Shown in pieces: positions 25,650 to 32,072 of a stretch of DNA of 43,830 nucleotides. A program made the translations under genes and the position numbers. The notes below the pieces were generated by a model. The model made no database searches, was not told where the DNA came from, and was given only the letters and a program-made list of their open reading frames with translations. Origin of the DNA: a virus (Duplodnaviria; Heunggongvirae; Uroviricota; Caudoviricetes); IMG/VR virus record IMGVR_UViG_2684622769_000012. One strand, written 5' to 3'. Within the stretch, counting starts at the first letter, position 1; each line of letters opens with the position of its first letter.

Positions 25650-26240
25650 TTTTCCTCACATATGTCATATAGTAAAGGATTATATATACCGTTGTTTTGG
25701 ACGCTCAAACAGCGAATCAGATCAAATAAAACGCACATTTGTTAACATTTACACAAAGTCTGCGTGGGATATTCTGAAAGAATATCCATAATGTGGAGAG
25801 AATCTATTGAAGTGCATGGTGCCGGGTGCCTCCCGGTGAACAAAATGTTCGTGATACCTGTCGGCGACAGAAAAGGTTAATGGTATCACCCCACCGCACA
25901 GGGGGATTCACCATGCAGGAGTTTTCTTAGCAAACTCACTGCGCGCCCGGCAACTCCCAACCACATAAAATGCGGAGTTTGTGGCATTTATGCATATAAC
26001 TCGCAGGAATTATCTTAAAAAACTGATGTCGATCCGGATTAAAAAGAAGCAGGTCATCATCAGATGACTGGAAAAAAGGAAAACAAAAAATACTCATCAT
26101 ACAGTTTTGATTGCAGGGATGAGCCTGCTATGCACAATATGCAGAATATAAGCAAGATAAAAATATGCAGGCATATTATTTCGGATCTTGTTATTAACAC
26201 AACCTTTTTAATAATCATTTGGCATACAATAAACCAGCCC

Positions 26241-26266
26241 AAAAAGAACCGCCTAAACAGGCGGTT
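26241..26266 (-). terminator. Rho-independent terminator-like hairpin (minus-strand sense) in the Q-to-late-gene intergenic region
   Basis: Plus strand aaccgcc-taaaca-ggcggtt (7-bp stem) preceded by aaaaag; on the minus strand the stem is followed by TTCTTTTT. Confidence 0.45.
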
Positions 26267-26510
26267 GGTCAATACAAAGGATGCTTCGTCTTTATTATAG
26301 TAATCTGAGGCGTCGGGTGTCTTGTATCAGACAACATATTGTCCCGCTAAACAGCGAATTACAAACCACCCTGCAATGATCTCTCATCTCATTTTATATG
26401 AGTTGACGACATCAGGATAACGCATCATCAGCCCCTGCCAAGAAATATCAAAACTCCCGCCAGCAATGTGTTATCACAATATTGTAAAAAAAACACAGCA
26501 CCGAAACTAT

Positions 26511-26549
26511 AACTGGTCTCTGTTATAATTTGGAGCAGAAAGACCAGTT
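26511..26549. repeat. 9-bp perfect inverted repeat AACTGGTCT ... AGACCAGTT with 21-nt AT-rich spacer containing TATAAT
   Basis: Read directly: 26511..26519 and 26541..26549; lies between Q and the late genes. Confidence 0.6.
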
Positions 26550-26586
26550 GCCCAACTAGCAGCATTCTCCCCTGCTTTCCTGACGT

Positions 26587-26613
26587 AAAAAAACCGCATT
26601 AAGCGGTTTTTTT
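26587..26613. terminator. Bidirectional rho-independent terminator hairpin about 80 nt downstream of the Q-like gene
   Basis: aaaaaa-aaccgc-attaa-gcggtt-ttttttt: 6-bp GC-rich stem flanked by an A-run and a T-run. Confidence 0.55.
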
Positions 26614-26693
26614 ACGATGTCCATGTCTGCAATCCGCCTCGCGATACAGCTTTGCGAAGCATAGCAAAATTGAAGCAGTTTATACGTAAGAAA

Positions 26694-27236
26694 TCAAGCC
26701 ATTTTCTCAGCAAATGATTCACGCATGGGAATATATAGGGCATACTCAGCAACAGCTAACCAATTAGCAATCCGTTTTTCGCATGTGCTAAAACACCACT
26801 CTGGGTGTGCATCATTTAGCAATTCAGCCATTTTGCGCTTAGTCATCCCCCGCCCTTCATAGCGTTGCCGGAGAATGCAAATCAATCCTGGATGCTCTGC
26901 CAGCACCTCACTTATGACTCGATCAATACATAACGCCTCTGCATCAGTACAATGCGCCAGCCAGCTCTTTTGCTTGCCGTTGATCATCTCTCGCAAAAAC
27001 GCTTCCAGCTCAGCTTTCTCTATTCCCGCTTTTTTCATTCTGCGCAGGGCTTCATTAATGGCTGTTTTCGTCAGTTTTTTGGATGCCAACAACTGATTGA
27101 ACATATTCCCTGACCTGCCACCGCCAATATACGACCAGCGCCCCCACATACGTAGTTTTCCCTGAATCCAGACACTTTCCAGCGTGGTGAGGCGAAGGTG
27201 TTCTCCGCTTTTTCCTGTATTCGTTGGGTAAATCAT
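26694..27236 (-). CDS. Putative late-gene antiterminator (Q-like) protein
   Basis: 180-aa basic ORF located in the canonical Q position (after nin-like genes, before terminator, holin and endolysin); assignment mainly positional. Confidence 0.45.
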   Translation of the reverse strand: MIYPTNTGKSGEHLRLTTLESVWIQGKLRMWGRWSYIGGGRSGNMFNQLLASKKLTKTAINEALRRMKKAGIEKAELEAFLREMINGKQKSWLAHCTDAEALCIDRVISEVLAEHPGLICILRQRYEGRGMTKRKMAELLNDAHPEWCFSTCEKRIANWLAVAEYALYIPMRESFAEKMA

Positions 27237-27523
27237 AAATGACCTTTCTTTCTCCAGATTTCTTGTGTGCGAAAAACCCCTTCAGCATGCATCAGGCGCA
27301 ATTCTTCTTTGGTGTAATCGCTGGTTTTTACCCGCCCGTCGATTAGATCGTGGCATGAGCTACAGGCTATCGCCGCCTGCATATCATGTGGTTTTGTCGC
27401 TGTTCCGCACGTCCCCGCCAGCCTGTAATGCGCCAGCACAGAGGTTTCGGGATTGTGATTGCAGTAGCCAGGGATTCTGATCTGGCACATCTGGCCTTTA
27501 GCCGCTTTACGTAAATTCACCAT
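27233..27523 (-). CDS. Cys-rich phage protein (DUF1364 / YbcO-like, nin-region)
   Basis: 96-aa ORF with C-x5-C...C-x2-C-type Cys/His spacing (CQIRIPGYCNH...CSSCHDLIDG); 4-nt overlap with the Q-like gene. Confidence 0.55.
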   Translation of the reverse strand: MVNLRKAAKGQMCQIRIPGYCNHNPETSVLAHYRLAGTCGTATKPHDMQAAIACSSCHDLIDGRVKTSDYTKEELRLMHAEGVFRTQEIWRKKGHL

Positions 27524-28122
27524 TACGCAAACTCCAGTAGTTGTGCGGCCACATTTTCAACTTCCTCCTGAGAGGAGAATTTACGGAACAGAATCCAGTT
27601 CCACAGCACATTCAGTACAGATTTATAAACCTGCTGAAACTCGACTTCGTCCATATTCGCAAAAGCGATGGATTTTGCCCGACGCCCACGGCTACCGTCC
27701 GGATAAATATGCTCGGTGTAAAATCCGGCCTGAATGGTTACCCACTCGCGGAAAGCCTCAAACGACTTTAGCAACGCCGTATCCCGGGTTCTACGAGTCG
27801 CAACGGTGTTAAGGTATTGCTCTGCGGCATCACTCAGGGCTGGCGTGTGTTCCCGACCAACTGATTCGCACAGGTAATCAACGAAACCAGACAGCAGTTC
27901 TCGTTCGCGAGGCGTGATCGCCCCACCGACCGGAGTCCAGTAATCGAATCCCAGTTGCAGGAGTTTGAAAAAACGCTTGTGGAATGCGTAGTTACGCACA
28001 CGCTTAAAGTCTGCGTGTATCCACTCACCTATTTTGATTTGATGCAGAAAATCGCAACTCTCCGGCGTCGCCGGGAGAAGTAAACCAGAAGAGGTTTGTT
28101 TGACCAGTTGTATATGCGCCAT
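27523..28122 (-). CDS. Nin-region phage protein (YbcN-like, DUF1367-type)
   Basis: 199-aa ORF MAHIQLVKQTSSGLLLPATPESCDFLHQIKIGEWIHADFKRVRNYAFHKRFFKL...; position upstream of YbcO-like and Q-like genes as in DLP12-type prophages. Confidence 0.45.
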   Translation of the reverse strand: MAHIQLVKQTSSGLLLPATPESCDFLHQIKIGEWIHADFKRVRNYAFHKRFFKLLQLGFDYWTPVGGAITPRERELLSGFVDYLCESVGREHTPALSDAAEQYLNTVATRRTRDTALLKSFEAFREWVTIQAGFYTEHIYPDGSRGRRAKSIAFANMDEVEFQQVYKSVLNVLWNWILFRKFSSQEEVENVAAQLLEFA

Positions 28123-28402
28123 TTCTCAATCTCTCGATGGCGCAGCGCAGCAGATGCCAGTTGTTCAGGCTGACGAATAAAGTATAAATAAACTGGCTAT
28201 GGTGTAAAGCCCCACATAGCATGAACAAACACTACATATCAAATAGCTGGTACAAGGATAGAAATACGACACTTATTATTAAAAACGATTAGATAAATTA
28301 CATTTTAATGTTATGCAAAAGTTCTTTTTTATCATAACATTTCAATAAAAGCATTACAGATGCAATCATCCCGTCATCATCAATTATTTAAGGTGGTTAA
28401 AC

Positions 28403-28489
28403 ATGGAAAATAACAAGTTCGCACATCTCGCTCCTTTTTTATCCGTAATCCTTTTCGCTTGTTGTTTTATATGGGCATTATTTTTATAA
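28403..28489 (+). CDS. Candidate 28-aa hydrophobic micro-protein (MENNKFAHLAPFLSVILFACCFIWALFL)
   Basis: ATG 28403 preceded by AAGGTGG at about 7 nt; single predicted TM helix; stop TAA 28487..28489; in an AT-rich accessory segment. Not in the ORF track (under 60 aa). Confidence 0.3.
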   Translation: MENNKFAHLAPFLSVILFACCFIWALFL

Positions 28490-28935
28490 AGTAGCCACAT
28501 GATAAGTTGCTGGAATCATATTTCCCACTCAAGTCATTAACATTTGATAAGATATATCTAAAAGGACGCCTTTACATTATTTATGCGTATATAATTTATT
28601 TATATACACAGTAAAGGTATCCTGGGAAAATATTTATCGTTAAAAAATACATCATAAATAATTAAGCTGAAATTTCAGAACACAACTAATACACACAATA
28701 AGGTTCAGTAACAGTAATCTATGTGGACTACATCGAGATTTTTTGATTAAACTTTAATAACTTATTCCTAACACACAGAATGCATAAACTAAAAGTAAAA
28801 CAAATAGTTATACGAAAAACAACCATATTTATTCTATCTTCTCCTCTAATCAACATATCAATTATGTGTTTCATAACAGCTTGACATAACCCTCCAAAAG
28901 ATGCATTTTTAATGCATGTTTTGGAGGAGGTGGTT

Positions 28936-29274
28936 ATGACACACAAGAGAATTCCTAAAGATTGGGTAATCAAACGCTCAACTCCGTTCTTCACAAAAGA
29001 GAACGTACCTTCAGCGTTATTAACACATCATAATACAGCAGCAGGTGTTTTTGGGCAGTTGTGCGTAATGGAAGGCACTGTAACATATTATGGTTTTACT
29101 GATGAGAATGCTACTGAACCGGAGATAAAAGTAGTCATTAATGCTGGCGCTTTTGCAACAAGCCCACCACAATACTGGCACCGTGTTGAACTAAGCGATG
29201 ATGCTCAGTTTAATATTAACTTTTGGGTCGCTCCAGACTTTTCGGGCGAAAAAGTCTATAGCACCAAAAAATAG
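28936..29274 (+). CDS. YeaR-like DUF1971 protein (TehB-N-terminal-domain-like), moron
   Basis: Start MTHKRIPKDW... (ATG 28936, RBS GGAGGAGGTGG upstream); RSTPFFTKENVPSALL...VMEGTVTYYGF...NINFWVAPDF parallels E. coli YeaR as recalled; opposite strand to surrounding phage genes. Confidence 0.65.
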   Translation: MTHKRIPKDWVIKRSTPFFTKENVPSALLTHHNTAAGVFGQLCVMEGTVTYYGFTDENATEPEIKVVINAGAFATSPPQYWHRVELSDDAQFNINFWVAPDFSGEKVYSTKK

Positions 29275-29303
29275 ATGATCATATTAAAAATGCTTTAACA
29301 GTC

Positions 29304-29340
29304 AGACCCGGCAGGGCTATCCCCGACGGGTCTCATTTTT
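29304..29340 (+). terminator. Candidate terminator after the YeaR-like gene
   Basis: agacccg ... cgggtct (7-bp stem, 16-nt loop) followed by CATTTTT. Confidence 0.4.
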
Positions 29341-29894
29341 GTAAATATATTGGTTCTACATTGACAGGAGACTTCAACCATAAGAAGTAATCTGAATACT
29401 TGAGCAATAAATTTACTTAAGATTAATGAGCGCACCTTGCCGGACAAAGATAAACCAAGGTAACACCTTTTTTCTAGCCAGTATGTAATCAATCAGAAAG
29501 CCGCTCCATAAGAACAACAGCAAGACAATAAATTGCCATTACAGCCGCAATAGCCAGCGCACATTTGAGAACCAGCACGACAACCCCCTGTATTAGACGC
29601 ACACCAGTCCTGATAAATATGAGGCTGTCTCGTCAGTGATTCAATACAACTATTGGGTATAGTTTCTGTGATTTTATTCTGTAGAAATGGAACACAACAA
29701 CCAGTCACCACCAGCACTTCCTTAAATGCTCTAAGTCAGAAACAAGCCAACATTTTAGTCCGCTTTGAGCGATCTGCAGACATTGCTAGCAGCCTTCTGT
29801 GTGAATTCTCAGGGAGCAGGTCGGCATAGCATCACGTTGAGGCTCTTACCCTACTTGTTCACACCAACCCTAACTCCACAGACTGATTCATAAA

Positions 29895-30896
29895 TTAGTA
29901 ATCTGCGTGTTTCGCACTTTTCAGAAATGCTTTCATATTTTCATTAGGTCGCTCAATTTCGAAGTTACTTCCATATAACTCTTGTAATTTTGGCCATAAC
30001 TTACTTAATAACCCTCTCCTGCGATAAAATGGATGTATCCAAACGGTAGATAGGTACGGAGAATTTGCATTTGAATTGTTTATTGTGACCAGCCCAACTA
30101 AACATTGTCGATAACCACTATTATCCATTGATTGTATTTCTTCGACGAATGGATACGCGATTACATCAGTCCAACCATGATCGGTTGTATCCCATTGCAT
30201 TCCGTCATGACATTCCTTCGACTGATAGCGGCGTAAAGCTACACACGCGAGCTTTTGCCAATCTGGAGAATTAATTGTGATCTCTTCATCGTATGACGCG
30301 CCTATTGGAGCGGGTATTGGTCTGATTAATCCAGCATGGCATTCATCATAGAACTTCATGTTTCCCTCAGAAACGTTGTGTACGTTGGGTTGCTCCATGT
30401 GTGCGCCATTCAAAAATAGCTCTGATAGTAGTGTATCTACACTGTAATCTTTATTGATTATTGTCGGCTTAGAGTTTTTCTTATTAAGGCCGCGAGTAAC
30501 GATTTTTTGATCAATGTTAACAACATGGAATAATCCGTCGGGGAGGCTAGCGAACCACGATGGGGCATCGGACCAGAATAGCATGCCTTTTGTACTTCTT
30601 AAGAGTTTAATTAAGTTAATACAAGCTTCTTCACTAGTCTTGCCGTTGATGCGAAGTATGTTAGGACTAAAGTAATATTCATCCATATCAGGGAATGCAG
30701 CTTCGCAAAACTCCTGTACATAATTTAGCACCTGGATTCTACAGAGATCATCATAGCTGGTAATAACTAAGGGGGTATCTTCATTACTATTATGATTATC
30801 AATAATGCAATCTATAGCGAGACTTACTGCTTTGCGTATCACTTCAGTTGAATCTAACGACTCTAAAAATTTTGTCTTTCGTGTGCGAATATCCAT
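29895..30896 (-). CDS. Hypothetical 333-aa protein, second gene of AT-rich accessory cassette (weak GNAT-like C-terminal motif)
   Basis: ATG 30894..30896 lies 15 nt after the stop of the upstream gene; AT-rich codon usage; C-terminal VWIHPFYRRRGLLSKLWPKL vaguely resembles the acetyl-CoA binding motif of GNATs; no other recognisable motif. Confidence 0.5.
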   Translation of the reverse strand: MDIRTRKTKFLESLDSTEVIRKAVSLAIDCIIDNHNSNEDTPLVITSYDDLCRIQVLNYVQEFCEAAFPDMDEYYFSPNILRINGKTSEEACINLIKLLRSTKGMLFWSDAPSWFASLPDGLFHVVNIDQKIVTRGLNKKNSKPTIINKDYSVDTLLSELFLNGAHMEQPNVHNVSEGNMKFYDECHAGLIRPIPAPIGASYDEEITINSPDWQKLACVALRRYQSKECHDGMQWDTTDHGWTDVIAYPFVEEIQSMDNSGYRQCLVGLVTINNSNANSPYLSTVWIHPFYRRRGLLSKLWPKLQELYGSNFEIERPNENMKAFLKSAKHADY

Positions 30897-30911
30897 GTAT
30901 GACCTGCGCTA

Positions 30912-31934
30912 TTAAAATTCATGAATGAACGGTTTGTCATCTGGTTGCAAAATGGTGGTTTTATTCGTTGCTACATTTAAACTGTTGTAGAGCATAATTG
31001 CCAGGTTCGATGCATTTTCAATCAGCGTTTCAAGATCCTGGTCTGTAATCACTACGAGGTTCCCTTCTTTATCCTTTCCACCACGATGCACTAAGTGATT
31101 TCGATTGAGGGTTGCCAATTCAATAGCTTCTATCGGACAGTCTTTTTGTACTTTTATATCGAATGTAGCTTCATAGCGGTCGATTACCTTTTTAGTGCTA
31201 TGCCAGCTTGCACTGATCAAGTGTTCCTTGATTGACCTGATTAGCTCTCCCCTAATTTTCTCGATGGGTTCACCCTTGAAAGGCAACGCAGCAATATCTT
31301 TGCTTACTTTAAATTCAGTCTTACCTTTTTCTATACAATTGGCTATGTAGACATCATCTTTCTCTATAGAATTAATGAATAGCTCAACATAAAGCGTTTC
31401 CAAAGCTGTAATAACATTCGTGTAGAGCAAACTAAGCAAGTGGTTTTTTTGCTGTTGTTCAGTTTTATCTTTTGCAAGTTTTTTTATTTTATCGATATTA
31501 TCAATGAATTTTAAATACGGATTACCGGAAGACGTTACAGCGTCGTAGATATCATCATCGTACCAATCATCTATATTATTTGAGTTTCCAGACCAGTCAA
31601 AACATTGTGTTTGTAATTCATCTACTAATTCCTCAATATACTCAGATTTAACATATTGACCGAAGATGGATTGTAGTTCTTCGCTCGCATCATACGGCCC
31701 GCCATATATGTAAGCATAGCCACCTTCTCTACTTTCATACGGACAAGCATTTGCCGGATCTTCAAAGTTTTCAAAGAACCAGTTTTTCATTACTTCGAGT
31801 TGATCTTTTTTGCTTATGTATTTTAAAGATTTTAGTGGAACTTTCTTTCCATTAACCTCGAAAACAATTTTCACGATGTAACGCTCCCTTGTATCAATTG
31901 CGCAACTATTATACCACAGCGAAATACAGGGCAT
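30912..31934 (-). CDS. Hypothetical about 340-aa protein with HEPN-like R-x4-H motif, first gene of AT-rich accessory cassette
   Basis: ORF 30912..32003; preferred start ATG 31932..31934 (MPCISLWYN...) with AGGAGG 6 nt upstream; alternative in-frame GTG at 31874 with AGGGAG upstream. Motif LNRNHLVHRGG near the C-terminus. Confidence 0.5.
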   Translation of the reverse strand: MPCISLWYNSCAIDTRERYIVKIVFEVNGKKVPLKSLKYISKKDQLEVMKNWFFENFEDPANACPYESREGGYAYIYGGPYDASEELQSIFGQYVKSEYIEELVDELQTQCFDWSGNSNNIDDWYDDDIYDAVTSSGNPYLKFIDNIDKIKKLAKDKTEQQQKNHLLSLLYTNVITALETLYVELFINSIEKDDVYIANCIEKGKTEFKVSKDIAALPFKGEPIEKIRGELIRSIKEHLISASWHSTKKVIDRYEATFDIKVQKDCPIEAIELATLNRNHLVHRGGKDKEGNLVVITDQDLETLIENASNLAIMLYNSLNVATNKTTILQPDDKPFIHEF

Positions 31935-32072
31935 AACCTGCCTCCTTAAACTAACATACCATGAGCCAGCAATGTCCGCTATTGGCACAAAGCGGACAAC
32001 CACGCTAGCTCTCCCCTGTGCCAGAAAAATGTCAATTTACATATGAACTAATGCTCTTTGATCTAGTAACGT

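Follow-up and report, generated by a model that had tools for sequence, protein, structure and literature searches.

The question raised by this locus is whether a 28-codon hydrophobic reading frame in an AT-rich segment of a prophage is a gene and, if it is, what its product does. The window (the whole stretch of DNA that was analysed, 43,830 nucleotides) is a Rac-type lambdoid prophage of Escherichia coli, and an identical stretch is flanked in E. coli LD39-1 by trkG, sieB, kilR, racC and recE. The explanation that we favour is that the frame is an unannotated gene, probably encoding a 28-residue single-pass inner-membrane peptide and carried by Rac/Qin-type prophages on a self-contained cassette of ~250 bp.

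The reading frame and its product

The initial annotation described an ATG at 28403, preceded by AAGGTGG, that opens a 28-codon hydrophobic frame in AT-rich DNA, and the sequence reads exactly so. The two elements are as follows.

28403..28489, plus strand: micro-ORF of 28 codons, with the start codon ATG at 28403 and the stop codon TAA at 28487-28489, encoding MENNKFAHLAPFLSVILFACCFIWALFL; a short polar N-terminus (MENNK..H) is followed by ~20 hydrophobic residues that run to the C-terminus
28390..28396, plus strand: Shine-Dalgarno sequence AAGGTGG, 6 nt 5' of the ATG

There is no in-frame start further 5' of the ATG at 28403. Residues 9-28 of the peptide are strongly hydrophobic (GRAVY 2.52). 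Across the relatives of this locus the Shine-Dalgarno sequence is AAGGTG(G/A) in most variants and is weakened to AAAGTGA in the commonest one, so that the strong ribosome-binding site (RBS) first described is a property of this window and not of the commonest variant elsewhere.

The GC content of positions 28150-28900 is 27-32%, compared with ~50% in the phage genes that flank it to the left, and several ORFs of 20-38 codons are found near the micro-ORF. A short ORF in AT-rich DNA is unremarkable alone; the frame of this one is conserved in all of the relatives examined, which makes it more than a chance occurrence. RefSeq leaves the interval that separates the DUF1367 gene (27523-28122) from the DUF1971 gene (28936-29274) unannotated, in agreement with the earlier view that the segment holds no other credible gene; relatives of the short ORFs in 28500-28900 are too similar to one another to be informative.

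Conservation of the frame

A DNA search with positions 28300-28620 as the query against 5426 complete E. coli genomes matched the RBS and the ORF in 1174 of them (~22%). Carrier strains include E. coli 042 (NC_017626.1, near 1,547,520-1,547,708), LY180, which derives from E. coli W, and NCTC9066 and LD39-1, whose allele is identical to that of the window. In ~700 of the carrier genomes the match is at 72-80% identity and covers essentially only 28383-28490, which corresponds to the RBS and the ORF. The median is one cassette copy per genome, with no tandem repeats, and none of the matches listed has a RefSeq gene annotation under the ORF. Carriage on plasmids was considered and rejected, as the two matches labelled 'plasmid' are chromosome-sized records of 4.8-4.9 Mb. 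Beyond E. coli, a scan of 185,579 species representatives with two peptide patterns revealed only two carriers, one genome of Shigella flexneri and one of Escherichia ruysiae.

The frame is always exactly 28 codons in the ~260 loci that were retrieved. Those gathered by similarity to the peptide (n = 89) comprise 11 peptide variants and 14 DNA haplotypes, all of 28 codons. Loci gathered by the upstream non-coding block alone, a selection blind to the ORF, have an intact 28-codon frame in 118 of 118 evaluable cases. Where the DUF1367 gene alone was used and enough flanking sequence was available (n = 74), the cassette is present in 52 loci, intact in all of them, and is missing entirely from 21; there are no decayed copies. 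The conservation across related prophages that had been proposed as a check is borne out, with the frame intact and of 28 codons in every relative examined.

The ORF is the sole frame of the six that is always open across the relatives. An overlapping 38-codon ORF on the minus strand (28384-28500) was rejected as a candidate gene; in most relatives it contains a stop codon and has no start. Stop codons are absent from the micro-ORF in all of the ~260 loci, though ~5% of random substitutions would create one, and indels are absent too, against 10 gapped columns of 76 in the leader. When 20 haplotypes are pooled, the variable sites are distributed 6/10/17 over the three codon positions, for which the chi-square test gives only p = 0.06; pairwise pN/pS is 0.25-0.5. 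The spanning tree of these haplotypes contains 52 changes, 23 synonymous and 29 non-synonymous, where neutrality would give a synonymous share of 21-28%. The binomial probability of this excess is 6e-5, 0.002 or 0.02 for assumed shares of 0.20, 0.25 and 0.30, respectively, and the amino-acid replacements preserve the hydrophobicity of the segment. The ORF shows modest diversity, its 20 haplotypes coming exclusively from Escherichia or Shigella, so that these coding statistics rest on few independent events.

Based on these sequence comparisons, the micro-ORF is very likely to be a real coding gene. The suggestion of a small membrane peptide gene in an accessory segment is supported by the conserved frame, the excess of synonymous changes and the presence of an RBS. 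With a length of 87 nt, the ORF lies just below the usual 90-nt cut-off, which accounts both for its being missed by gene callers and for the gene being unrecorded. A search of 5.8 billion predicted proteins with a doubled peptide query found four entries only, each of them frameshifted, truncated or N-terminally extended, and these represent aberrant versions that are long enough to be called. Nothing relevant to the peptide, or to small genes in the hokD/rem neighbourhood, emerged from text searches of the literature.

Prophage setting of the cassette

The ORF lies among the following genes of the window.

26694-27236, minus strand: DUF1133/Q-like gene
between the Q-like gene and the DUF1367 gene in the listed local order: YbcO gene
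27523-28122, minus strand: DUF1367 gene
28936-29274, plus strand: DUF1971 gene
29895-32003, minus strand: two genes of the cargo, with products of 333 and 363 residues, beyond the DUF1971 gene
beyond the cargo genes in the local order: DUF977, DUF1627 and DnaC-like replication genes

The cassette that carries the ORF sits at the junction of a variable cargo region and the DUF1367/YbcO/Q-like block in Escherichia and Shigella prophages. One of its sides always abuts the promoter region of the DUF1367 gene or of a rem-like gene, which is the first gene of the block that leads to the Q-type antiterminator. The other side varies, with at least five distinct downstream contexts that include hokD in convergent orientation in the majority of cases, DUF1971, an S8 peptidase together with an FtsH-like protein, AbiH on the far side of hokD, and unnamed genes. 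One fixed and one varying side indicate that the cassette is the conserved edge of a cargo hotspot. Beside near-identical DUF1367 genes it may be present or absent (52 and 21 loci, respectively), and the rem-hokD interval of the K-12 Qin prophage is without it, homology there beginning at the hokD terminator.

The 'moron' genes of lambdoid phages, which are expressed in the lysogen, include bor, lom and sieB. Like these, the cassette is an AT-rich insert with its own (here candidate) signals, an orientation independent of the phage operons and a presence or absence that differs among similar phages; two of the marks by which morons are recognised, a distinct GC content and presence or absence in varied contexts, are both found. 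Unlike them, the micro-ORF is far smaller; its own promoter is a candidate only, and a search for a plus-strand terminator inside the cassette found none. The ORF is oriented opposite to the phage early-right genes, and this orientation together with the composition suggests that its expression would occur in the resident prophage, like that of lambda bor, and not during lytic growth.

The varying side also bears on whether the ORF could be a leader peptide that controls a neighbouring gene, either the downstream DUF1971 gene or, in other strains, the convergent hokD. The ORF does have its own RBS and lies upstream of a same-strand gene in this window, and a transcript from it would, in most other strains, extend into hokD at the 3' end of that gene. 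The same-strand gene is, however, 447 nt away and has a regulatory palindrome of its own, while the downstream gene differs among carriers, is usually on the opposite strand and is in most loci the convergent hokD. A leader-peptide role fails because the downstream gene is not fixed, and the peptide sequence itself is under selection; we regard this explanation as very improbable.

Several further features of the neighbourhood were observed. In one locus (L037; 1520-2793, 3001-3087) an inserted IS2/IS3-family element separates the promoter region of the DUF1367 gene from the cassette, and both the cassette and its ORF are intact. In two others (L002, 3295-3450; L003, 3215-3370) the annotation of hokD does not include the relB and relE genes found ahead of it in K-12, and the hokD terminator lies within ~20 nt of the stop codon of the micro-ORF, so that the 3' ends of the two transcripts may overlap. 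Upstream of the DUF1367 gene there is a minus-strand promoter match at 28181-28208 (TTTACA, 16 nt, TATACT; 10/12), and its conservation upstream of DUF1367 and of the rem-like gene in other prophages suggests that a promoter of its own may serve the Q-proximal block. The Rfam model of IsrK, a Salmonella prophage small RNA, gives weak matches to both strands (20-22 bits, the threshold being 50) at 26532-26660, a position just downstream of the Q-like gene.

On the cargo side, a 17-bp inverted repeat (28891-28927) covers the RBS of the DUF1971 (YeaR-like) gene, and its core AAGATGCATTTtTAATGCATGTT (28898-28920) is identical at 21 of 23 positions to the ytfE NsrR operator AAGATGCATTTAAAATGCATCTT. 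This similarity suggests that the DUF1971 gene may be a prophage-borne nitric oxide responder. The two cargo genes at 29895-32003 match nothing in PADLOC, and their Pfam matches (GNAT; HEPN/RES N-terminal domain) are all below threshold. The same slot is occupied in other prophages by AbiH, by the S8 peptidase and FtsH-like protein or by a 752-residue uncharacterised protein, and the two genes could be an undescribed defence or toxin pair.

Architecture of the cassette

The cassette and the candidate signals on its two strands are as follows.

about 28249-28505 (~250 bp), plus strand: whole conserved cassette, comprising a regulatory block, the leader, the ORF and a few bases past the stop codon
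28276..28304, plus strand: candidate promoter TTATTA (28276-28281), 17-nt spacer, TACATT (28299-28304), inside the most conserved block
28307..28341, plus strand: leader hairpin AATGTTATG-N17-CATAACATT (28307-28315 with 28333-28341), with conserved pairs
28270..28287, minus strand: hairpin CGTTT-TTAATAAT-AAGTG with a T-rich run after it; terminator-like according to the scan of relatives
28383..28409, minus strand: candidate promoter TTTCCA, AATAAT, overlapping the start codon and the RBS; its RNA would be antisense to the leader
28477..28505, minus strand: second candidate promoter TTATCA, 17-nt spacer, AATAAT, at the 3' end of the ORF

Homology among the diverged relatives starts near GTACAAG (28250) and stops ~15 nt past the stop codon. 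The most conserved non-coding block is at ~28270-28315, and it holds the candidate plus-strand promoter, both hexamers of which are invariant or nearly so across the diverged relatives. This promoter is only 7/12 to the consensus, which is below the threshold of the promoter scan, and so was not reported by it. The gene would be transcribed from this weak AT-rich promoter of its own in the conserved upstream block. The leader hairpin that follows retains 8 or 9 of its 9 pairs in all loci, equally well when read on either strand, and is possibly the 5' end of the mRNA. No plus-strand terminator was found within the cassette, and the whole leader folds into an RNA no more stable than its shuffles on either strand.

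Within the same conserved block there is also an invariant dyad, ATTAAAA-N18-TTTTAAT (28278-28309). The sequence TAGATAAATT (28290-28299) matches the high-affinity H-NS motif, TCGATAAATT, at 9 of 10 positions, and this suggests that H-NS may silence the cassette.

Conservation of this kind would also be expected if what is conserved were a regulatory element of the cargo boundary, in DNA or RNA form (divergent promoters, a terminator or operators), and the frame were incidental. The upstream block at 28270-28315 is as conserved as the ORF (22 of 61 columns variable, compared with 33 of 87), both ends of the ORF coincide with promoter-like hexamers of the minus strand, and in every case the cassette borders directly on the promoter region of a DUF1367 or rem-like gene. 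Hardly any variation, even at silent sites, is seen in the last six codons, which hints at an additional constraint at the nucleotide level, for example a minus-strand promoter or a recombination boundary. The non-coding explanation is nevertheless hard to square with the coding signature, namely the synonymous excess, the absence of stops and indels from an ORF whose leader does have indels, and replacements that keep the segment hydrophobic. We consider it improbable.

Comparison of the peptide with known families

The residues that are invariant among the peptide variants are Met1-Asn4, His8, Pro11, Leu13, Ser14, Ile16-Phe18, Trp24, Ala25, Phe27 and Leu28. Cys21 is nearly so, being replaced by Phe in one locus, while position 20 is the most variable of the peptide (entropy 2.03). 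A helical periodicity of residue conservation, which would indicate a specific partner, was not significant (p = 0.14).

The conserved cysteine raises the question of whether the peptide is the precursor of a lipoprotein. In this allele ILFA followed by Cys fits a lipobox, cleavage at which would leave the nine residues CCFIWALFL, and there are weak matches to lipoprotein and spanin signal-peptide models. The lipobox rule (PROSITE PS51257) calls for G, A or S directly before the lipid-modified Cys and disallows L or F. The variant in the window and two others do have A, G or S directly before a Cys; among the variants, however, the residue before Cys21 is L, F, S, G or C, and the commonest, L or F, fall outside the rule. 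The lipoprotein reading was accordingly rejected at the level of the family, since the residue preceding the conserved Cys is the most variable, although the present allele (LFA before Cys) fits, and it is extremely improbable as the explanation of this gene.

Among characterised peptides, the closest in build are Ibs and ShoB, type I toxins of E. coli with 18-26 residues. Like them, the micro-ORF product is very short, with a few polar N-terminal residues followed by hydrophobic ones up to the last residue; the gene is likewise intergenic, missed by annotation and provided with candidate antisense promoter sites on the opposite strand. It differs in having no sequence similarity to them, in having no Sib- or OhsC-like RNA that could be found with Rfam, and in being single-copy and prophage-borne instead of forming chromosomal tandem repeats. 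Common to it and the Ldr/Fst peptides are an Ala-Pro motif near the start of the helix and an aromatic residue close to the end (APFLSVILFACCFIW, compared with APILAGIITAAIVSW in LdrD). This match, however, is not significant (15 columns, 1.8%), the Pfam Ldr and Fst models do not match, and the charged C-terminal tail of those peptides is absent.

In its size, its single-helix build and its unannotated state, the product also resembles the unannotated or recently annotated small proteins found by ribosome profiling, such as YnfS, KdpF and YohP. The 29-residue YnfS of the Qin prophage likewise has a Q-type antiterminator gene as its neighbour, is carried by a cryptic prophage and contains a Cys-Cys pair; unlike it, the micro-ORF is absent from K-12, and the two are not homologous. 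In the K-12 Qin prophage locus (L007) YnfS is at 623-712, a position analogous to that of the micro-ORF. On sequence grounds, the peptide appears to be the product of a small membrane-peptide gene in a prophage accessory region, with no demonstrable membership of a named family.

A possible type I toxin

The resemblance to Ibs and ShoB is the starting point for an alternative in which the gene is one half of a new toxin-antitoxin pair of type I. In this scheme the peptide would be a toxin that damages the inner membrane, and a short minus-strand RNA that overlaps the leader would control the toxin by blocking translation or by triggering decay of the mRNA. A small hydrophobic ORF with one membrane helix, as is characteristic of type I toxins, is what the locus encodes (28 residues, GRAVY 2.52), its short polar N-terminus and hydrophobic remainder are like those of Ibs and ShoB, and a type I toxin gene, hokD, adjoins it in most carriers.

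The candidate signals for such an RNA are weak. In diverged groups a minus-strand promoter-like site overlaps the start codon (TTTCCA, 16 nt, CATAAT or TATGAT; 9/12), the -10-like hexamer outside the window being CATAAT, TATGAT or AATAAT; in this window its spacer is poor, at 15 nt. The second minus-strand site, at the 3' end of the ORF, has the same geometry in approximately three quarters of the loci and is degenerate in several lineages. Promoter-like matches are no more frequent in the cassette DNA than in shuffled sequence. Approximately 100 nt downstream of the start-codon site is the terminator-like hairpin, which covaries in favour of the minus strand: all five pairs are retained in 254 of 257 loci when it is read on the minus strand, compared with 182 of 257 on the plus strand, and the compensatory changes are GC to GU and CG to UG to UA. 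The hairpin has just these five pairs, however, it could equally serve the phage early transcripts, and the putative RNA folds no better than its shuffles in three of four lineages. On the plus strand, GGTG of the RBS (28392-28395) can form a short helix with CATC in codons 8-9 (28424-28427), and the pairs are of the GC, GU and AU types across the relatives; with only 4 bp, this is weak evidence.

Searches for known families argue against a toxin of any established kind. The peptide has no family match in NCBIfam, Pfam, PHROG or PADLOC and no similarity to Hok, Ldr, Ibs, ShoB or Fst; profile comparison finds nothing for Fst and ShoB and aligns LdrD over only 15 residues with a probability of 1.8%. 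An Rfam search of 26000-31000 gives no RNA family match in the micro-ORF region, and the search for a complementary RNA nearby that could act in trans found only AT-rich repeats at chance level. The single copy per genome, with no tandem repetition, also counts against it. The initial annotation compared the product to a type I toxin or a small membrane regulator; the description as a small single-helix membrane peptide gene stands, and the toxin part finds no toxin family or Rfam match. We regard a type I pair as rather unlikely. The fuller form of this proposal is a new type I family in which a 28-residue toxin and a ~110-nt leader-antisense RNA, at the edge of a cargo/defence hotspot, would serve to stabilise the prophage or to abort infection, and convergent early transcription of the phage would add a second level of control; this is unlikely.

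Proposed role and significance

The favoured reading is of an accessory membrane peptide that is encoded at the conserved edge of a prophage cargo region. From the positive-inside rule, the N-terminus (K5, H8) is predicted to be cytoplasmic and the C-terminus to lie at the periplasmic face after a single span, and the peptide would then act within the membrane. We propose, tentatively and at somewhat less than an even chance, that it is expressed in the lysogen and works through helix contacts with a membrane protein of the host or of a phage. Such a role might be, for example, the exclusion of an incoming phage or the modulation of a transporter or sensor.

On this evidence, a conserved gene present in ~22% of complete E. 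coli genomes is missing from annotation pipelines and protein databases, and it adds to the repertoire of small membrane proteins. The cassette marks the boundary of a prophage region in which defence and toxin genes are swapped. If the peptide is a toxin or a phage-exclusion factor, the cassette would be a very compact module for the biology of prophage and host.
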